From Fibrobacteria bacterium (GTDB lineage Bacteria > Fibrobacterota > Chitinivibrionia > Chitinivibrionales > FEN-1185): a stretch of DNA of 64,000 nt. Below, in pieces: positions 842 through 28,899 of this stretch. The notes beneath the pieces were generated by a model. It ran no database searches, was not told where the DNA came from, and saw nothing but the letters and a program-made list of their open reading frames with translations. The stretch lies in contig JBBIGR010000012.1 of assembly GCA_037447435.1 (NCBI GenBank), positions 40,127 to 104,126 of the forward strand, in the 5' to 3' direction. The position numbers were made by a program, and so were the translations under genes. Position 1 is the stretch's first letter, and every line of letters begins with the position of its first letter.

Positions 842-980
842 ACCTGAAATTTAACAGTATTATATATTTTGTTCATGCCCATTGGAACTACATTGCGGGA
901 AAAAGTTTTTTTCAATGAAGCATACGCACTTTTTTTGCGATAACTACCGATATGGTTAATAAAAATCAAGGAGGCCGTTG

Positions 981-3152
981 ATGCCGCCCAAAAAAGCCAA
1001 TCAGGCGCAGTTTTATTTTTTCTCGGGGACGCTGAGTCATGACACCTTTGAAGTTATGAATTTTTCAGGTACGGATAGAATATCAAGCACCTATAAATTC
1101 AGCCTTATGCTCATATCCCATCGCGCCGATATTTCACCCGATGACGTCGTCAACAAGGCAGGGACTTTGATGATTTTTAGGGACGGCGAATATTATCCCT
1201 ATTCGGGTATAGTTTCGGAATTTAGGTTTCTTGGAAAAAGCCTGGACCGCGCGACCTATTGCCTCACTCTTGTCCCGAAGCTTTGGTTGCTTAATCTGAA
1301 TATACAGACAAGGATTTTCCAGAAAAAAAAGGTTAATCAGATCATAAAGCTCGTGCTCGACGGCGCAAACTTGTCCGATTATTACAGGTTCCAAATTGAC
1401 GAAAGCAAATACGCTGAACAGGAATACGTCGTTCAATATCAGGAATCCGATTTTAACTTCATATCCCGGCTCATGGAAGCAAACGGTATTTGGTACTTTT
1501 TTAACGAAAATCCGATTTTGGCCGAAGAACTCGACGGATCGACCGGCGTGGAACAAATGGTCATATCCGACAAGGCCTCGTCTTTTGAATTTATTGCAAC
1601 GACCTCCGATGTTTTATTCCGCACGGTTTCGGGCATGGCGGAACAAATTGATACCGATGAAAAAGAGTCGATTCATGACATTGAACTGTTCCGTCAGGTT
1701 ATCTCAAAAGAAGTCCTTTTAAAGGATTATAACTACCGCACTCCGGAAATCGATCTGCGTGGTCGTAAACCGGTTAAAACCGGCGATGTCGGTACCGTGT
1801 ACAGCTATGGCGAACATTTCAAAAACACTACGGAGGCCGACCGGCTTGCCGAAGTATCGGCAAACCGAATTTCGACCCAGAAGATATCCATAGACGGAAG
1901 CGGCAATTGCCGCGGTCTTCGTGCCGGGAAACGATTTACCCTTCAGGAACATTTTCTGGATACGATGAACGGCAAATACGTTGTTACTCAAGTGACGCAT
2001 CAAGGCAGTCATACAATGGAAGGCGACAGCATGAACGTCTACACCTATGCCAATAGGTTTAATTGCATTCCTGCCGCGTCTGCCGATTCATACAGACCCT
2101 TACAGCGGACGCCGGTTCCGCGTGTCCACGGAATCATGACTGCTCAAATCGAAGCAAACGGATCGAATTATGCCGCACTCGACGACATGGGCAGGTATAA
2201 GGTTCGTATGCCTTTTGATTTGTCGAATGCGAAAAATTATGAGGCCTCCCGTTATATCCGGCTGGCGCAGCCCTATGCGGGCTCGAATTACGGCATGCAT
2301 TTTCCTTCACATGAAGGCACGGAAATGGTTTGGGCGTGCATAGACGGCAACCCCGACCGCCCGCTCGGTTTGGCAACGGTGCCAAATGCGAATACCATTT
2401 CTCCTGTTGTCAGTGCAAACAAACAGCAAAATCTTATTCGAACCGCGGGAGGAAACGAGCTTTTGCTCGATGATACCGATGCCAAGCAAAAAGCGAGGCT
2501 CACGACAAAATCTAAGCATACGCTCGAAATGGACGATGATCTTAAACGGGTTTTTGTCTCGTCCAAAGACCAGAACAAGCTTTTGCTCGATGATAAAAAC
2601 GAAGTCGTGTCCTGGAACGGCAAAAGCCATTCCATAACCATGACGTATAAGAGCGGCAGCGAAAGTATCGTCATTACGACAAAAGACGGCCATATCGTGA
2701 AAATGGACGACAAAAACAAAAAATTGACAATACAGACAAAGGCCGGCAACATCATCGACATGGACGATTCGGGCAAAAAAATTGCCATGGCCGATTCCGC
2801 GGGCAAAAACAAGGTTACTTTGGACGGCGACGGCAATAAAATCCTTATAGACTCCCAAGGTGAAATACAGATCAGCGCAGCAAAGGATTTAACGATAAAA
2901 GCCGCGAACATCAAAATGACCTCGCAAGGCAAAATCGACATGCAGGCTTCTGGTGATTTCACGGTCAAAGGTATGAAGGTTTCCCAAAAAGCGGACATGG
3001 ATTTCGAGGCTAAAGGCATGAATGTTAAAGTGGAAGCTGATATGAATATGACTATCAAGGGCGGCATGCAGACAAAAGTCGGCGGCATGATGACCGAACT
3101 TTCGGGTGATACAATGGCAAAGGTTAAAGGCGCGATCGTCATGATAAATTGA
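981..3152 (+). CDS. vgrG: Type VI secretion spike protein VgrG/TssI
   Basis: Motifs VQYQESDFNFISRLME.NGIWYFF, DYNYRTP, D.MGRYKV, YGMHFP...GTE......DGNPDRP, IRTAGGNELLLDD and a gp5-like beta-helix C-terminus. AAGGAGG RBS. Confidence 0.95.
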   Translation: MPPKKANQAQFYFFSGTLSHDTFEVMNFSGTDRISSTYKFSLMLISHRADISPDDVVNKAGTLMIFRDGEYYPYSGIVSEFRFLGKSLDRATYCLTLVPKLWLLNLNIQTRIFQKKKVNQIIKLVLDGANLSDYYRFQIDESKYAEQEYVVQYQESDFNFISRLMEANGIWYFFNENPILAEELDGSTGVEQMVISDKASSFEFIATTSDVLFRTVSGMAEQIDTDEKESIHDIELFRQVISKEVLLKDYNYRTPEIDLRGRKPVKTGDVGTVYSYGEHFKNTTEADRLAEVSANRISTQKISIDGSGNCRGLRAGKRFTLQEHFLDTMNGKYVVTQVTHQGSHTMEGDSMNVYTYANRFNCIPAASADSYRPLQRTPVPRVHGIMTAQIEANGSNYAALDDMGRYKVRMPFDLSNAKNYEASRYIRLAQPYAGSNYGMHFPSHEGTEMVWACIDGNPDRPLGLATVPNANTISPVVSANKQQNLIRTAGGNELLLDDTDAKQKARLTTKSKHTLEMDDDLKRVFVSSKDQNKLLLDDKNEVVSWNGKSHSITMTYKSGSESIVITTKDGHIVKMDDKNKKLTIQTKAGNIIDMDDSGKKIAMADSAGKNKVTLDGDGNKILIDSQGEIQISAAKDLTIKAANIKMTSQGKIDMQASGDFTVKGMKVSQKADMDFEAKGMNVKVEADMNMTIKGGMQTKVGGMMTELSGDTMAKVKGAIVMIN

Positions 3153-20074: not shown

Positions 20075-20356
20075 CTATGCAGGAAAAACCACTAAAAAAG
20101 CGCTATAGAGACTTAAAAAAATCATCAGCAGTTGGACAATTGAATAGACAAAAGCCCGTTTCAATCCTTTTTCCTTTTTAGAAAGAATTAATAAAATATG
20201 GCACACGATGTTTATTGACATGTGAACAAAAAACCCGACTGCTGTCCCGATGAAACAATAAAATTGCCACATCGCACGGGGAGTTGTCCAAAAAGCATAA
20301 AAAACAATACAGAACATCGCAAGCAGAATAACGTCTATAAGCAGATGTCGGCTCAT
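20075..20356 (-). CDS. Small membrane protein (2-3 TM), candidate immunity protein
   Basis: Hydrophobic 93-aa ORF 14 nt downstream of 20371-21489, on the same strand. Confidence 0.5.
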   Translation of the reverse strand: MSRHLLIDVILLAMFCIVFYAFWTTPRAMWQFYCFIGTAVGFFVHMSINIVCHILLILSKKEKGLKRAFVYSIVQLLMIFLSLYSAFLVVFPA

Positions 20357-20370
20357 TCTTTTCCGGTCGA

Positions 20371-21489
20371 TTAATTTTTAAAAAGCCCGTCAATAGTATC
20401 GAATATTTTGTCAATAACGGAATTATCCGCTTTTGTATGCGCCGGATCAGACGGATTCGGATCCGAGGTTCCGACAATCGTACTACCTTTATGTTTGTGG
20501 TTGTCCAACAATGCCTCGACAAATATCTTGGAGATTTCTGTTGCAATTCCAGGCACATGACGTAATATCGAAAATATTATGTTCGAAGTCAAGGCGTGAT
20601 TATCCTTTAATCGAACAGTGATATACGGCACTGCAAAAATTTCAATTTTCCCGGCAATACTTTTCATAACCGCATCTTTATTCGTTATTGCCCCAGAAGC
20701 GTCGAATGTTGCGCTGTTCATGGATAAAAAATATCCGGCTCTGTTTTTCCAGAGGTCGGAACCGGCATCAAGATACGCTGTCAACGCATCGGCAAGCGAC
20801 GGTTTATTCTTAAAAGCAAGATCGCATGGACCGGTAAAAGGAGGCGTTTCAGATGCGATTAAATATCCGGCCACATCACCTTCGAGATTTACAGAAGCGC
20901 CGTAATCATGTTCATTTGTAAAAAGAGTCTTTGCCCGCATTTTTGGGTTTGAGATTCTTTTGTACGCGAGCATTCCCGCGCCGCCGCCGATATCGCCAAG
21001 CCAAGTAGAAGTTTCAAGGCCTGTCCCCCCGGTTGGCAATGGCACGGATCTTGAGGTGAAGCTAGCACGAGCTTGAAGCCCGATTATCGTATGGCCAACA
21101 TCAAGCGATCTGGAACCATCCTTTACTTCTGCACTGTTTTGTAAAGCTGCGAATAACTCCTGGCCAAGAGCGGGTCTGGGGTCGGCAGGCATCATTGAAG
21201 CGGTGAATATTTGAAATCCGTTATTTCGTGTTGTACTTTTTTCCTTTAAGAAATCCATGCTCCAGGGAGTTCCATAATAAATGCCCCGCAACATCGAGAT
21301 GCGATCGAGGATATCCGTGACACCATGATCAGTCATTTTTTGTTCGGCTACTCTAATCAAGCCAATTAACTCTTTAAAATTGCGGGCTTTTCTATAATGT
21401 GAGACTCGAATGGCGTTACCGGACAATACTTTAAATTTATCGGGTTTGGAAAATTCTATCATTACGGTTTTACGATCGTTACCGCTCAT
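20371..21489 (-). CDS. Hypothetical protein in the T6SS cargo operon, candidate effector
   Basis: 372-aa ORF with AAGGA RBS and no signal peptide. Conserved-looking motifs LRGIYY, LDVGH, TWLGDIG, LEGDVAG. Confidence 0.7.
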   Translation of the reverse strand: MSGNDRKTVMIEFSKPDKFKVLSGNAIRVSHYRKARNFKELIGLIRVAEQKMTDHGVTDILDRISMLRGIYYGTPWSMDFLKEKSTTRNNGFQIFTASMMPADPRPALGQELFAALQNSAEVKDGSRSLDVGHTIIGLQARASFTSRSVPLPTGGTGLETSTWLGDIGGGAGMLAYKRISNPKMRAKTLFTNEHDYGASVNLEGDVAGYLIASETPPFTGPCDLAFKNKPSLADALTAYLDAGSDLWKNRAGYFLSMNSATFDASGAITNKDAVMKSIAGKIEIFAVPYITVRLKDNHALTSNIIFSILRHVPGIATEISKIFVEALLDNHKHKGSTIVGTSDPNPSDPAHTKADNSVIDKIFDTIDGLFKN

Positions 21490-21510: not shown

Positions 21511-23514
21511 TTAAAAAACGGCAACTCCGCTGTTCCGTTTTACCAATGCCAACTTACCCAAATGAATTCTGCGTACTTGATTCCAATTAAAACCGATAAC
21601 GCCGTATTGTTGGCCGGGTATTTGTCTAAATGTCGTTGCCGTTGCCAGAGCGGGATCCGAGGCGGGGTCGGCAGAAGGCTCATCAAAATTGGTTTTCATT
21701 TTTTCGAACAGGTCATTTTCGGAAAGTGTGCCTAAAATGCCATGTCCGATATATTTATCAACCCCTGCCTCTTTGCCGATATAAATGACATTCTCTCCCG
21801 CCCACGCGCCTTTCGGATGCTTTGCTCCGTAACGCTCGTCATTTTTATAATAAAGCCAATCCCCTTTTTTCAATTCCGAAGTATCGGCAACAGTCACTTC
21901 GTCTATCAGCGACTCTAATCGCGGGCAAGCTAAAGATTTTGATAATATCAATCCAGGATTTAAGACGGATTGCCATTTGAAATATTCGGAAAAAACATCT
22001 TTTCCCAATGTTTCAAGAATTCCCTTTAAATACACCGCAAGAAGCGCCATATAGCATTCCAATATGCATGGCGAATGATAAAAAATCGAATATACCGCTT
22101 TCCATGGCAACATACCTTCCCGGAGAACGCAAATCAAAGGATTTATCGTTTTCCAAAAAATCGGATCAACGGTTGTCGTACCTCCAAAATCAATTGATTT
22201 GTTTTTCATTTCCTGAACAATGCTATTTCGTACCATTAAGACATCCAGAATCGACAGCGTTTGCGGGCCAACGCTTCCCTCTTGCAATATCGGCGCCTGC
22301 GCATGATTGTATTTTTTCTGGAAATTTACAACTGCACTTCTGGTTTCTTGACCGAAATCCCTATCGGTTTTGTAAACAGGCAACACAGTAGAATCATCTT
22401 CGAGCAGGGTGTTCTGAACTTTTCCAACACCTTCGCCGGAATCCCCTTCGCGAAGATAATATGACTTATTTCCTTTAAATGCAAATTCGAGGTTTGCGCT
22501 ATGAATCATATCATTTCGCAGCTGACGCCCGTTTTTTTCTCTATCAGTATTACTTTGTTCATATATAGCATCCAAATCGTCGGGCGCATTTACAATTTTA
22601 TAAGCATCCGATACTTCGAGTGCGGGACTTGGATCTTGTTCGACATTAAATGCAAGCTGTACCGGGCCCGGCGGTATGTCTAGTTCCGAAATAACCCCCG
22701 AGGAATCGATTGTTCCCTGACGTTGAGACCCGTCTGCAAATTGCAAAGTGTACGGAATATTAATCTGATCGAAATCATTAAAATTCGTAAGATCGAGATT
22801 CAGATCGTCCTTGAATTTCAAAAAGCCACTCTCTTGTTTTTCTCCGATTCTTACACCGTCTATGATTACGATAAAAAAATATTGCACGGGAACATAGTGT
22901 TTATGATGCTTTTGACGTTCTTCTTCCGTCACAATCGATTCCGCATCACCTGTGTAATCGAATTCCCAATTAACATCTATTTTGTCATTTTGAATTTCTA
23001 CGGGAAACGAACAATACGCTTCATGATGGCCGTCGGGATCGTATTCATACACAACCACTTTTGCTTCAGTTCCGGCAAGCGGATTGACAAATTGAACAGA
23101 AAGCGTAACGACATCACCACGGCGGACCTCATTTTTATCCCAGCACATTTTTGATATCTTGATTGGAGGTCCCACTGGTATTGTAGACAATGAATCCGTT
23201 TTTAAACCATGTTTCGGCAGCTTGGCTTCGAATCCGATTTGAGCGCCCAACTCCACCTTTTCGGGTATCGGTAAACTCCCGATAAATTCATTATTGTAAA
23301 TTTTGCCTTTTATCGTTCCCGGCGCTTTACCCTTGGAGCTGAAACCCTTTATTTCTATGGATGAGCCTTCGGCAACCGCATAGGTAACGACTTTGACTTG
23401 TGCATCCAGGCCGCCGTGCGCGGCTGTTGACAGCCATGAAGCCTCGACAATTTCCGAATCGAGTTTGATTTTCTCTTTTTTATCGGTTGAGACTTGATAT
23501 TCGCCGTCCATCAT
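21511..23514 (-). CDS. Candidate T6SS effector: Ig/transthyretin-like N-terminus, peptidoglycan-binding domain and Tgl-like transglutaminase domain
   Basis: PG_binding_1 pattern LREGDSG..V..VQ..L...DFG.ET..AV..FQ. C-terminal ECYMA...Y..IL..LG...F, GDWLY.KN, W.GENVIY and Y.GHG match Bacillus Tgl motifs. Confidence 0.75.
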   Translation of the reverse strand: MMDGEYQVSTDKKEKIKLDSEIVEASWLSTAAHGGLDAQVKVVTYAVAEGSSIEIKGFSSKGKAPGTIKGKIYNNEFIGSLPIPEKVELGAQIGFEAKLPKHGLKTDSLSTIPVGPPIKISKMCWDKNEVRRGDVVTLSVQFVNPLAGTEAKVVVYEYDPDGHHEAYCSFPVEIQNDKIDVNWEFDYTGDAESIVTEEERQKHHKHYVPVQYFFIVIIDGVRIGEKQESGFLKFKDDLNLDLTNFNDFDQINIPYTLQFADGSQRQGTIDSSGVISELDIPPGPVQLAFNVEQDPSPALEVSDAYKIVNAPDDLDAIYEQSNTDREKNGRQLRNDMIHSANLEFAFKGNKSYYLREGDSGEGVGKVQNTLLEDDSTVLPVYKTDRDFGQETRSAVVNFQKKYNHAQAPILQEGSVGPQTLSILDVLMVRNSIVQEMKNKSIDFGGTTTVDPIFWKTINPLICVLREGMLPWKAVYSIFYHSPCILECYMALLAVYLKGILETLGKDVFSEYFKWQSVLNPGLILSKSLACPRLESLIDEVTVADTSELKKGDWLYYKNDERYGAKHPKGAWAGENVIYIGKEAGVDKYIGHGILGTLSENDLFEKMKTNFDEPSADPASDPALATATTFRQIPGQQYGVIGFNWNQVRRIHLGKLALVKRNSGVAVF

Positions 23515-23537: not shown

Positions 23538-23975
23538 TTAGGCTTGGGGCTTTAATAATAAAAAACTTGCGACGATTTTATCAAAGTCGTTCGCTATGGT
23601 TTTTAATGTTTTTTTGGAAAATGTTCCGGTAATCACAAACGCCTTTGCTTCTTTGATAAAATAGAATTGTTTTTGGTATAAAACATAATTTTCCGCAGGA
23701 ACATATTTGTAAACGACTTCCAACGCCTGGGTTCCGTCGGGGAGTTTTTTATCAACCTCGCCGAGCATTTCAAAACCGGGCATAACCTGTTTGGGGCCGC
23801 TCAGTTGCGCTTGCGCGTAATCTTTTAATGTTGTTTCTTTTGAAATAAACGGGTCTATGAGCAGAACCAAATTATGCTGAACGCCGCTATCATGCGGCCC
23901 TTCAAAAGTATAAACCGTCGTTTCTTTCCAACCGTCGGGAAAGGTGAGCTGAAAAAGGTTGTTGTTCATTGGCAT
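23538..23975 (-). CDS. DcrB-related/DUF1795 (Eag-like) T6SS chaperone
   Basis: F....P.GW..TT...F, L.DY...QL......PGF, and Q.Q.......A..IT.T patterns; 145 aa; PAAR context. Confidence 0.75.
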   Translation of the reverse strand: MPMNNNLFQLTFPDGWKETTVYTFEGPHDSGVQHNLVLLIDPFISKETTLKDYAQAQLSGPKQVMPGFEMLGEVDKKLPDGTQALEVVYKYVPAENYVLYQKQFYFIKEAKAFVITGTFSKKTLKTIANDFDKIVASFLLLKPQA

Positions 23976-24025: not shown

Positions 24026-24820
24026 TTATCTGACAATTTTAATCTTACCATCAACCAAACCGACATAAATTTGGATCTTTGTCCGGCTACCGTTCAAGCC
24101 TTCGGTTCGCCAAAGCGCGAGACCGTCTTTAAGTTTAATTTCCCAGATTCGACCTTCGCACCACTTTTTTACTACAATGTCATCTCGTTTAAATCCTGTA
24201 AAAGGCGTTTGCGGAAAAATTTTATTCTTCATCCAATTTTCAAACCAAAGATGATTATCCGCTTCTTTTTGTTCCGGATATGCGATGTCGTAATCCAAAA
24301 GTTTGGGTTCATATAATGAATACAAGCCTTCGATGTCCCGCCTTTCAAGCAACGATCTAAACGCAATCGCCCAGTCTTTCAACGTTTCTTCATTTTCAAT
24401 CGGTTTAGTTTTTATCAATCGGTTTTCAAATGAAGCAGCATCGTCACTATCGAATTCTGACGATATTTTAAACGGTACAAGATCTGCGATTTTAAGTAGC
24501 TTTACCGGATCTTCTTTTATCTCGGCAATTTTTTGTTCTAAGGTAAATCTTGAAATTATTTCTCCGGATTCGGGTCCAATCATATCGGTAGGTGAATACT
24601 TTTTTATCAACCCTTCCACTTTTATTTTGTCGAGTGTCGTCATATCCAAAGATGCAGGCATAACCTCCACTTCAACTTTATTGGTTTTCCCAATAAGCTC
24701 GGTATTGCAAGGATATTGAACGCTTCCGACTTTTGTCGCGTTCAATTCTTCGATACTTAGTCCATTGATGCTGATTTTGCACGTGCATGTATTGGCGGAA
24801 ATTTCGATATAATAGATCAT
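24026..24820 (-). CDS. Hypothetical protein, candidate immunity/accessory factor
   Basis: 264-aa AT-rich ORF with AGGA RBS inside the PAAR operon. No signal peptide. Confidence 0.65.
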   Translation of the reverse strand: MIYYIEISANTCTCKISINGLSIEELNATKVGSVQYPCNTELIGKTNKVEVEVMPASLDMTTLDKIKVEGLIKKYSPTDMIGPESGEIISRFTLEQKIAEIKEDPVKLLKIADLVPFKISSEFDSDDAASFENRLIKTKPIENEETLKDWAIAFRSLLERRDIEGLYSLYEPKLLDYDIAYPEQKEADNHLWFENWMKNKIFPQTPFTGFKRDDIVVKKWCEGRIWEIKLKDGLALWRTEGLNGSRTKIQIYVGLVDGKIKIVR

Positions 24821-24906: not shown

Positions 24907-25953
24907 TCAAAGTAGGATTCCCAACAAATTAAAATTAGAAAGATTTTTCGCGTCTTCCAAGTCAAATGGATCCAAAGCACACTCCTTGACATTTGAGGGA
25001 TTGTAATACACCTGAACCAAATCTCCCTTTTTCAGCTGCGTCCATCGGTCTCGAAGTTCTTTTCCAGAAATACGACCGCCTATTAGGATTGAATGCCCAA
25101 CGTATTTGGTGCCATTTACAACAAATGTGTACTCCATGAGCTCTCTGGTGAGATCGGATTCTGTAATTTGTCCTTGAACCGAGGGCCATGTTTGTGCCAA
25201 TTTTGCTTTTTCAATCAGCATTTTCCCTTCATTTCTCATAAAGAAACGATAACCGATGGGCAGTAGCATGATTGCAACCAACCCGATTAGGATGGGAATC
25301 CAGCCGAACCTATTTGCCTGTTCCGTATTGACAATGCTTTGCACTGCAGATGTGACTAGAATAACGGAAATTATAAGAGTCACACAAAAAATTAGTCGTA
25401 TGGCAAACGTGCAGATCGGGTCAAGAAGCATATCTTTAGGTAAGATGTCTGAAAGATAGTTGAATCGTGCTAGATTTTCGAAGGGTTCATAGTCTTCGGA
25501 TGGATTTAAGAGACAATTCGATGGGTTCTGTGGATCATAAAAAACCCGAATTTGTTTTCCTGTTGGATATGTTTCAATAATGGCCTTGATCTCGGCCGCA
25601 TCCGGCCTGTCTGATCCGGAGAGGACCGCAGACAATCGATATCCGGTATATCCATTACCTTTTACAGCAAATCTGTACTCAACATCAGGATAGTATATTG
25701 TTTCCGGTTCATTCCGCCGTAGCGACATATTGTAATGAAAGCCGTCGACTCTTTTCACATTTGAGCGGACGATCGTTCCTTCTGCCGAAGGCCACAGGCG
25801 GCTAGCATTTTGTCTTTGCACTAATCCTTGGCCAGTCTTCCTTACCATTTTGGCAAAGAAATAAAATACCAGCAGCAGAACCAAACCAAAGACTATCCCC
25901 CAAATCCAACTTCGCCCGGCAAATAGTTCGGAAATCATTTTAGATAATTCCAT
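24907..25953 (-). CDS. Membrane protein with two DUF3592-like domains
   Basis: Two repeats of WPS..G.I..S ... Y.F.V.G..Y.G ... V.Y.P.N...C.L, each preceded by TM helices. Start codon uncertain. Confidence 0.75.
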   Translation of the reverse strand: MELSKMISELFAGRSWIWGIVFGLVLLLVFYFFAKMVRKTGQGLVQRQNASRLWPSAEGTIVRSNVKRVDGFHYNMSLRRNEPETIYYPDVEYRFAVKGNGYTGYRLSAVLSGSDRPDAAEIKAIIETYPTGKQIRVFYDPQNPSNCLLNPSEDYEPFENLARFNYLSDILPKDMLLDPICTFAIRLIFCVTLIISVILVTSAVQSIVNTEQANRFGWIPILIGLVAIMLLPIGYRFFMRNEGKMLIEKAKLAQTWPSVQGQITESDLTRELMEYTFVVNGTKYVGHSILIGGRISGKELRDRWTQLKKGDLVQVYYNPSNVKECALDPFDLEDAKNLSNFNLLGILL

Positions 25954-26050
25954 TCTGCAAACGTATAAACGGCATATCAATGATTTTTTCGTTCTTGTCA
26001 GACATATTAGCAATTGCGAGCATAGTTACCTTATTTTTTTGGCAAAACGA

Positions 26051-28408
26051 TCACGGATTTCTGCTGATTAGGTCCTTCATTGGATCAATGTACTTGTCCA
26101 ATATGTTTTTTAATTCCCCTCCATCAAGAAACAAAGCGAATCTTTGTTCTTCCATGTGTGCATAATGCATGCCTGGATCTTTCTCATTGTTAAGATTCTC
26201 AAGGCATTTCCTAATATCAAACACCAGCGCTTCCGATGTTTTAGCATCTTTTCGAATATCGTTCCTTGAATGTATTTTTTCTTCTATTTCGTTTGCAACC
26301 TCTTTCATTTCTTTGTATTCATTCAATCCAAGAACTCCCGCCTTGATTCTTACCCTAATATCATCTCCCTCGGTCAATTTTTCCATCATCATTTTATGCA
26401 AATCTTCCCGTGGAATGACCGGAGGATTATATTCAGCTTTTGGATCGGGCCATTGCCATTTGCCAAGATCGTGAGAACCTATAAGCTCGTGTTCATAGGA
26501 TTGATTTGCTTTTTCATCCAATTCCTTGGGAGCATTATGTAAATCTTCCTCTGGTGAATGTTCGTCAACACCCTCTTTTTTTGCAGTTCCTGCGGAAATT
26601 TTTAATTTCCCCGTGATACCAGACCATTTTAGCGCGCATCCAATCGACCAACCTTCTTCGTGAGTAAATTTCAAAGCACCATCTTCAAGCTTAAAACCGG
26701 TTTCCACCGTGCCTTCTAATTTAACAAAACATCCTGCTTGCGCGCGTGCACCTAAAGACCCTATTATTTCGGCACTAAAAGGAAAACTAAAGCCGGATTC
26801 GCCATCCGGAGAAATTTTGCTAAATTTCGCAGAAAGGGTAACTCCGCCGGTTAAGGATCCGAAAATCTGTATTTTATAAGCAAAACCACTAACACCTATT
26901 CCTAACTCCATTTTTAAATCAATAAGCTTAAAATCAAAATTACCGCCAACGTAATAATAAGCACGATGGTCTTTATATTCCTTCCACCCCCATTCTACAA
27001 CAAAAGTCCCTTGGAATAGCTGATTTTCCCATTCAAAATACCAGCCAACCTTTGGAACATTTTTCTGGATGAGTGGAAGAATGTCACTTATTTGTTTCCC
27101 TAATTTGACAACCGCCCCGACTGATTCCATAAATTTTAAATTTACTTGTGCACCATTCCGAACAAATATGATTGGCATTTCCGATGTCAAAGGTTTAGGC
27201 CATTTATTTAAATGCCAACCTTCTTTTTCTTTTTTATATTCCCAGGAAGATGCAGTTGTCGGTCTTTTATTTTTTACTTCATTGACAAATTGCGATGCTT
27301 CGGATTCAACTTTTGTGCCACCCGACCATTTTCTCATTGCTGGAAACTGAATTTGCAATTTGTACAAATCGGGCCTGTAGCATTTTACGGAAAAAGTTTT
27401 AGGCAAGCCTGAGATTGGATATTCCTTTGGTTTTGCCAGACCTTTCCAAAATTCAGGATTCCATATTGATGGCCCCCATTTAAAATCCTGATCGCACTTT
27501 AGTAAAAAGGCATGCATTCCGAATTCGTCTTCTTTTTTCTCCAAACTTGTGCCATTTGAAGAAAGCGACGTTGCGGTACGGGATAGTATCATTACCTCGT
27601 CTTTATAAGCGTCTTTTCCAATACTGTCCGGTACGACCTCAAAAACATTCGTGCTCTTTACAGCTCTTCTCTTCCCTTCGTATTTATGGGAACAATATGC
27701 ATACATTTCAATCATTCGAAAAACATGGACGTTGTTTCCAAAAGCAAGGATAGACCGCTCTTTCGGAACGCTATCGAAAGCTCCAACTGTTTCTTCCGCC
27801 GGAGTAACGCGCGGCGAATTGGGAAACAAAATCCGATGAATACGGGCAGGAATTTTCTTAGCAGTAGCCTTTCCAGAAGAATCGGTTGTAATCTCGGTGT
27901 TTACTCCGTTGGAAAGTTTCAGCGAAATTTTTTCACTTGCAATTGCTGTCCCGTCTTCCTTTTCAACTTTTATAGACAGGTCAGTATAAAAAGGAATTGC
28001 CGTCGAAGTTTTCTTTGCCTTATTAGCTTGTGCCACAAAATAGAGCGACGAATCGGAATACTTAAGAGGATTATTTTTTGGGATAATACTTCCTGGATAT
28101 TTCCAAGGAACTTTTGCTTTGTTACCGCTTATTTTATTGCTCAAAAATCCGAGGCTTGTATCCGGACTGTCGGTTTCTTTCTGATAAAAATAAAAAAATA
28201 TTTCCACACCATCTTTTAAACCCTTGGATTCAACAGACGCTTCAACATCTTCACCGACCTTTAGTTCCGGTTTCGACCATTTTGCGTTAGTTAAGGTACC
28301 TACCTGGATAGTATGGGTTCCCTGCACAACGCTTGTCTGCTTTAGGTTGCTGCTCGCAGTTCGGCTCGCTTTGGTATTTGTCGGTGTTATATGAGTATAG
28401 TTCATCAT
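26051..28408 (-). CDS. Large PAAR-associated candidate effector
   Basis: 785 aa. Overlaps the PAAR stop (TAATG). Transthyretin-like motif TTDSSG.A...IP and a Gly/aromatic-rich beta-strand C-terminal half. Confidence 0.75.
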   Translation of the reverse strand: MMNYTHITPTNTKASRTASSNLKQTSVVQGTHTIQVGTLTNAKWSKPELKVGEDVEASVESKGLKDGVEIFFYFYQKETDSPDTSLGFLSNKISGNKAKVPWKYPGSIIPKNNPLKYSDSSLYFVAQANKAKKTSTAIPFYTDLSIKVEKEDGTAIASEKISLKLSNGVNTEITTDSSGKATAKKIPARIHRILFPNSPRVTPAEETVGAFDSVPKERSILAFGNNVHVFRMIEMYAYCSHKYEGKRRAVKSTNVFEVVPDSIGKDAYKDEVMILSRTATSLSSNGTSLEKKEDEFGMHAFLLKCDQDFKWGPSIWNPEFWKGLAKPKEYPISGLPKTFSVKCYRPDLYKLQIQFPAMRKWSGGTKVESEASQFVNEVKNKRPTTASSWEYKKEKEGWHLNKWPKPLTSEMPIIFVRNGAQVNLKFMESVGAVVKLGKQISDILPLIQKNVPKVGWYFEWENQLFQGTFVVEWGWKEYKDHRAYYYVGGNFDFKLIDLKMELGIGVSGFAYKIQIFGSLTGGVTLSAKFSKISPDGESGFSFPFSAEIIGSLGARAQAGCFVKLEGTVETGFKLEDGALKFTHEEGWSIGCALKWSGITGKLKISAGTAKKEGVDEHSPEEDLHNAPKELDEKANQSYEHELIGSHDLGKWQWPDPKAEYNPPVIPREDLHKMMMEKLTEGDDIRVRIKAGVLGLNEYKEMKEVANEIEEKIHSRNDIRKDAKTSEALVFDIRKCLENLNNEKDPGMHYAHMEEQRFALFLDGGELKNILDKYIDPMKDLISRNP

Positions 28409-28899
28409 TATCCGCCCAAAGGAGTATTACTTTTATCAAGAAACGTCACATCCAAATAATGGTCTTCCGGCTCATTGGTTTGCGGTTCCTGGCCTGCGAT
28501 TGATGCCGACGTCAAGGCCCCGGCCGTTCCTGTTCCGCCGCTGCCTCCTCCTCCGCCACCACCGCCGCCGCCCCCTCCACCACCTCCACCTGCTTCACCG
28601 ATAAGGACGGTCATGCATCCCATGATGATTGAACTGGGCGGACCGACGCAAACTGCCATATCGCCCATACGCGCGGCCGGTTTGCCGCCGATAAGAACGC
28701 CCGTGCTTCCGAGTGTAATTGGACCGCCGACATGCGGTATCGGAGGAGTCCCGGGAGTGACCATAGGGCAAACATGCATATCTCCCATACACGCGGCAGG
28801 CATGCCGCCGATTAGGACCGTAGGGCATCCGGGGCCGGTTATCACGCCGCCGTGTGCTGTTGAATCTCCGAGTCTTGCCGCAGGTTTTCCCATACTCAT
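28408..28899 (-). CDS. PAAR domain protein with poly-Gly linker
   Basis: Three PAAR motifs (PAARLGD, PAACMGD, PAARMGD), H.CP...H metal-binding residues and a G-rich linker. Confidence 0.95.
   Translation of the reverse strand: MSMGKPAARLGDSTAHGGVITGPGCPTVLIGGMPAACMGDMHVCPMVTPGTPPIPHVGGPITLGSTGVLIGGKPAARMGDMAVCVGPPSSIIMGCMTVLIGEAGGGGGGGGGGGGGGGGSGGTGTAGALTSASIAGQEPQTNEPEDHYLDVTFLDKSNTPLGG

Follow-up and report, generated by a model that had tools for sequence, protein, structure and literature searches.

What does a relative of the spore-coat transglutaminase Tgl do in a type VI secretion system (T6SS) operon? The question is raised by a 667-residue protein encoded in the window analysed here, a 64,000-nucleotide stretch of contig JBBIGR010000012.1 from a Fibrobacteria bacterium (assembly GCA_037447435.1). 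The protein is very probably T6SS cargo and, if it is cargo, glutamine-directed acyl transfer is its moderately favoured chemistry. The complete explanation, a T6SS toxin which acts after injection as a glutamine-directed acyltransferase and cross-links or deamidates the proteins of rival cells, has about an even chance of being correct. It is built on observed elements: the domain content, the fold, the retained catalytic residues, the operon and the T6SS genes. An injected toxin is likely because the relative of Tgl is intact in a host without the master regulator of sporulation, and is joined in one protein to a wall-binding domain and a T6SS carrier. The gene is laid out as follows:

21511..23514, minus strand: whole gene, 667 aa, carrier, peptidoglycan (PG)-binding domain and Tgl domain; signal peptide absent (hydropathy)
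22642..23514, minus strand: N-terminal carrier module, aa 1-291, unnamed in Pfam and NCBIfam
22234..22470, minus strand: PG_binding_1-like domain, degenerate, aa 349-427
21532..22227, minus strand: Tgl-family (PF20085) transglutaminase-fold domain, about aa 430-661
22054..22059, minus strand: E486-C487, equivalent to Bacillus subtilis Tgl E115-C116 (alternative acid and nucleophile) by alignment to 4P8I
21793..21795, minus strand: E574, equivalent to the catalytic E187 of Tgl by alignment to 4P8I
21817..21819, minus strand: H566, within a YxxKHPxG loop which B. subtilis Tgl lacks and which is common among non-spore relatives
21742..21744, minus strand: H591, equivalent to Tgl H200 by alignment to 4P8I; mostly Phe in relatives

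The region is unbroken, with no joints, in a single contig of one public DNA run, which is possibly the source of the assembly. The first-pass annotation, made from the letters of the window, had described the span 21511..22470, which lies inside the open reading frame (ORF) and covers only residues 349-667 of the longer protein. The Tgl-type C-terminal domain that it announced is present, with a size of about 230 residues and not ~190. Its four motifs are where it had put them (ECYMA at aa 486-490, GDWLYYKN at 551-558, WAGENVIY at 571-578 and YIGHG at 588-592), as are C487 (codon at nt 22056-22054), E574 and H591.

The similarity to the Tgl family and its papain-like fold was borne out by the PF20085 score, the PDB matches and the structure alignments. 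Pfam TGL (PF20085) matches residues 426-630 (E 5e-15, 55.9 bits, gathering cut-off 23.7), and a phmmer search of the PDB returns Tgl entries only (4P8I, E 8.6e-9; 7C9J, E 1.6e-4). The domain has the Tgl fold and shares with the spore enzymes (B. subtilis 4P8I, Geobacillus 7C9J, PF20085) the family and the E-C and GEN catalytic positions, with just 20-23% identity by structure alignment. Unlike them, it has the extra YxxKHPxG loop and is fused to the carrier and the PG-binding domain. The equivalog model of the spore-coat orthologues (PRK03187) gives 43.8 bits, versus the 307 bits needed, and Spo0A_C has no match in the host genome, which is 99.6% complete (the control was positive). By score and fold the protein is a PF20085 member and not an orthologue of the spore enzyme; its activity is predicted.

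The catalytic dyad of B. subtilis Tgl is Cys116/Glu187, with Glu115 as a possible substitute; His200 is described as dispensable for catalysis and required for substrate interaction, and the activity of the H200A variant is undetectable (excerpts of PMC6490927). The alignment to 4P8I places C487, E574 and E486 on the Cys116, Glu187 and Glu115 positions. The conservation of these residues was followed in the matches to a search over 1.84 billion representatives (367 at E ≤0.001), 150 of which were listed and examined; among these are one false positive, one protein that Pfam does not match and many fragments. Among the relatives listed, C487 is kept in 146/147 aligned rows, position 486 is E or D in 146/147, and E574 is E in 119/149. 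Position 591 is H in 19, F in 105 and L in 21 of 149. H566 is present in 129/147 and is missing from 8/22 rows of one sub-clade where E-C and GE are invariant. The two histidines occur together in only 15/150 listed proteins, which makes the protein studied here unusual. Because C487, E/D486 and E574 are mostly kept while H591 is rare and H566 patchy, the common core across relatives is, by alignment, a Glu-Cys...Glu set and not a Cys/Glu/His triad. The Cys/Glu/His site of the first-pass annotation was thus corrected, the dyad of Tgl itself being Cys/Glu.

The assignment as cargo comes from the genomic context. Twelve T6SS core components score above cut-off in the genome: TssA, B, C and Hcp are on contig C1, TssE, F and G on C28, and TssK, L and M on C25. 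The best match to a ClpV-like gene (810.6 bits) is just under the cut-off of 884.95. A single T6SS is scattered over four loci (contigs C1, C12, C25 and C28), which hold the sheath and Hcp, the baseplate, the membrane complex, and VgrG with the PAAR operon. The genes of the window which belong to this context are:

978..3152, plus strand: VgrG, the sole copy found in the genome, at 17 kb from the operon
23538..23975, minus strand: DcrB/DUF1795 adaptor (E 2.6e-10), directly upstream of the Tgl-like gene; kept just upstream of the carrier in relatives
24026..24820, minus strand: soluble 264-aa ORF, conserved, 38-72% identical in related operons regardless of effector
24907..26013, minus strand: membrane protein with two DUF3592 domains
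26051..28408, minus strand: 785-aa ORF, conserved in the operon, its N-terminus like the second half of the carrier
28408..28899, minus strand: PAAR spike-tip gene, operon head, the sole PAAR found in the genome

The gene had been described as lying beside a DUF1795/DcrB chaperone in a PAAR operon, and it does: DcrB is directly upstream and PAAR heads the operon. It has the PAAR, VgrG and adaptor linkage, and the lack of a signal peptide, of T6SS cargo.

The carrier module is matched in 24/81 genomes of the class, weakly in a few of them, and its named relatives are metagenome-assembled genomes (MAGs) of Fibrobacteres or Chitinivibrionales; it also occurs in a Zixibacteria MAG. TssC, present in 61/81 genomes of the class, is found in 22/24 genomes which bear the module vs 39/57 others, counts in which kin are not independent. 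The gene order PAAR, 785-aa gene, DUF3592, 264-aa gene, DcrB, module recurs wholly or partly, and at one locus (L025) the operon is upstream of a Clp ATPase, tssB and tssC. The module stands alone in most relatives; in others it is fused to Hcp (L113, L114), to an amidohydrolase (L013, L110, L112) or to a C39-like peptidase (L117), and in PAAR proteins (L025, L116, L118) its second half appears as the C-terminal extension. With its varied C-termini and its occurrence with Hcp and PAAR, the module fits a polymorphic N-terminal delivery domain. In a set of 13 loci with the module, the slot could be read in eight, at the module or behind it; the eight hold six amidohydrolases (two with LysM, one below cut-off), one metallophosphoesterase and one unnamed protein. 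The gene after the slot protein begins with a hydrophobic, signal-like stretch in 12/13 slot loci checked (crude hydropathy; some are close kin). PF20085 is found in 3/296 genomes of the phylum and in 0/7 other genomes of the family, as expected of a swapped-in tip. The module, with copies at loci L013-L055 and L110-L118, is a candidate new T6SS delivery or adaptor domain, which could be used for effector mining. Two further divergent Tgl-like proteins (L057:1-1113 and L058:904-2214) occur in a different family within the phylum; the product of the gene after the L057 one has a weakly hydrophobic N-terminus.

Tgl-like domains also form the tips of putative effectors elsewhere. The companion domains among the matches listed (E ≤0.01) are DUF4157 in 42 (41 above cut-off), PG_binding_1 in 8, LysM in 8 (6 above cut-off) and an RHS repeat in 1 (below cut-off), and the protein ends within 130 residues of the GEN motif in 119/149 relatives. 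A metagenome scan with a DUF4157-rich sub-clade gave 46 loci, four of which adjoin genes of the eCIS type (extracellular contractile injection system; 28 hand-chosen ORFs scanned): Pvc16 with an AAA ATPase; DUF6519; a tube with an OB-fold spike; and an AAA ATPase with DUF4157. A family of YD-repeat proteins of roughly 180-240 residues lies directly downstream in 25/46 loci, several of which are near-duplicates, and is a candidate immunity family for effectors of the Tgl type. Examples are L068:2590-3222, L074:9269-10000 and L077:8884-9555, in addition to 22 other loci.

In the proposed mechanism, the 291-residue N-terminal module, with the help of DcrB, would load the protein on the PAAR/VgrG spike, and after injection the PG-binding domain would anchor it at the wall of the target. 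C487, activated by E574 or E486, would then attack a substrate glutamine to form a cysteine acyl-enzyme, which would be resolved by cross-linking to lysines or other amines, or by deamidation. The mis-cross-linked or deamidated envelope proteins would impair the cell.

The closest characterised precedent is EAT14, an eCIS toxin of Chitinophaga rupis which combines DUF4157, LysM and Transglut_prok (PF09017) (excerpts of PMC11297309). Like the protein described here, it is a contractile-injection effector with a transglutaminase-like tip behind a wall-binding domain. Its toxicity depends on the cysteine, and its chemistry is likewise putative. In contrast to our protein, it belongs to another transglutaminase family (Streptomyces-type, PF09017, Cys/Asp/His triad, not Tgl) and to an eCIS, not a T6SS. 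A transglutaminase-like injected toxin of another family is already known. Glutamine-directed acyl transfer is also proposed or shown for the Tox-TGase polymorphic toxin domain (part of PMC3482391) and for the CNF1 and DNT deamidases (named in part of PMC11297309); these are of other families and their named examples are host-directed. The term Tgl is absent from the examined part of PMC3482391, and the only paper found to cite PF20085 mentions spore-coat cross-linking alone in the part seen. The statement that no characterised effector of this architecture is known agrees with the literature searched, in which there is no Tgl-family effector; unannotated members are possible among the predicted toxins in the supplement of PMC11297309, a source seen in part.

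Several observations weigh against a glutamine-directed toxin. Its secretion, toxicity and enzymatic activity are predicted, and the clustering of C487, E574 and H591 is one that we infer from the fold match. Four of the seven tunnel residues of Tgl (F69, W149, Y171, W184, R185, N188, H200) are retained, namely Y171, W184, N188 and H200; W149, on the glutamine side, has no aromatic equivalent in the profile alignment, R185 is replaced by Ala and F69 is unmappable. The exact three-part fusion is seen only in this genome. A PG-binding domain had been announced right before the Tgl domain, and it is there, real by profile evidence and degenerate. Pfam PG_binding_1 (PF01471) gives 17.3 bits over aa 360-422, under the cut-off of 23, and a custom profile of seven PG-binding domains from relatives, including the closest one (P0009), matches aa 349-427 with E 1e-13 in a six-frame search of the genome; both DG motifs are altered (to DR and EG), and the region is of low confidence in the predicted structure model. 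In a tree of 144 rows, left after the removal of the false positive and of six rows that were fragments, duplicates or unassigned, the nine nearest neighbours, our protein included, form a group with support 0.81 in which four members, again including it, have PG-binding domains and none has a DUF4157 match. The DUF4157 profile of eCIS effectors (PF13699) has no match on the protein itself. No recognised cognate immunity gene lies beside it, and a profile search found no YD-repeat partner near it; the sole match in the host genome lies on another contig, in an ORF of 787 aa, and its domain scores are weak.

A T6SS toxin which uses the Tgl fold for hydrolysis, as a Tae-like peptidoglycan amidase or endopeptidase or as a protease, is rather unlikely. 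The authors of the EAT14 study note that transglutaminase-fold toxins can be proteases (excerpts of PMC11297309), which counts against acyl transfer. The papain-fold T6SS amidases of the Tae/Tse1 type share with our protein an NlpC/P60-like core, T6SS delivery and a possible wall target.

It is improbable that the protein is secreted by the T6SS without being a toxin, and cross-links components of the producer itself (spike, cargo or extracellular matrix), like Tgl on the spore coat. The missing immunity gene, the stand-alone adaptor form of the carrier in most relatives and the structural role known for Tgl (excerpts of PMC6490927) are in favour of it. However, the rarity of PF20085 in the phylum and the family is not that of a machine component, the protein fills a variable slot which elsewhere houses effector-immunity pairs, and the relatives are C-terminal tips (119/149 listed) with a conserved partner gene. 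A recently recombined cassette, silent or decaying after the loss of its immunity gene, is still less probable: the fusion is unique, the PG-binding motifs are degenerate and a headless second toxin tip follows with no immunity gene in between, but the frame is intact, every mapped catalytic residue is kept, and the closest listed relative (P0009, 52% identity) has the PG-binding and Tgl domains in the same order.

The first-pass annotation had proposed a delivered toxin acting on periplasmic or wall-bound targets. Its status as cargo is supported by the carrier, the operon and the T6SS genes, whereas the evidence on the target is split and an envelope target, slightly favoured over the cytoplasm, is not established. 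The PG-binding domain and the exported partners of other slot effectors point toward the envelope, as does the absence of a soluble cognate inhibitor, since a cytoplasmic toxin would need one. Conversely, 21/25 YD-repeat partners have no signal peptide, which for that sub-clade suggests a target in the cytoplasm and also counts against the proposed mechanism; the remaining four have a lipobox, and three close relatives have the leader out of frame. EAT14, which bears LysM, is toxic on expression in both E. coli and yeast (excerpts of PMC11297309), which by analogy would count toward the cytoplasm. Exported partners have a parallel in TsxE/TsxI of Myxococcus xanthus (excerpts of PMC5801462), where LysM and amidohydrolase 2 make up the proven effector TsxE; the operon slot in related genomes holds proteins of the same domain make-up, followed by an exported protein. 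Unlike these, the slot of our operon has a Tgl domain fused to the carrier and no exported partner.

More tentatively, non-spore enzymes of the Tgl fold may be widespread, unrecognised 'spot-welding' toxins, common to eCIS and T6SS, which kill by covalent cross-linking of target proteins, are neutralised by a small YD-repeat immunity protein and are grafted here on an unnamed T6SS carrier of Fibrobacterota. In that case a family of conflict enzymes would include the spore-coat enzyme as one structural offshoot. If the injected-toxin reading is true, a family treated in the literature found as a spore-coat protein would provide a new mode of interbacterial attack, by covalent cross-linking or deamidation, with testable toxin-partner pairs. 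The carrier module would be defined as a marker of T6SS effectors in Fibrobacterota, and diverse small transglutaminases with an altered substrate tunnel would become possible protein-ligation tools.

Two genes follow the Tgl-like gene:

20371..21489, minus strand: soluble 372-aa ORF, the next gene, a stand-alone copy of another toxin-tip domain
20075..20356, minus strand: 93-aa protein, three membrane helices predicted, candidate immunity partner of the 372-aa ORF

The 372-aa ORF is likely a second effector rather than an immunity protein, because it shares 41% identity with the C-terminus of a PG-binding-domain protein (L060) and is found on DUF4157 proteins (7/14 longer homologues). Since the next gene is thus a toxin-tip homologue, a rescue by neighbouring ORFs, suggested in the first-pass annotation, is doubtful. 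The L060 homologue is likewise followed by a small hydrophobic ORF, whose homology to the 93-aa protein is not shown. The 372-aa domain has a weak lead to YkzU (PF27189). The 785-aa protein (26051-28408, minus strand), which has a Gly-rich C-terminal region, may be one more effector, with the DUF3592 or the 264-aa gene as its partner.

Among other Tgl-like loci, a protein with a signal-like N-terminus (L107:5768-6889, and L106) precedes a MORN-repeat protein that has a lipoprotein-like leader, possibly a Sec-route version of the effector-partner pair. Finally, a Salipiger plasmid has a weak Tgl-like match (L063:14476-15759) directly upstream of a gene annotated as a pyruvoyl histidine decarboxylase; a neighbour which supplies amines would fit amine incorporation.
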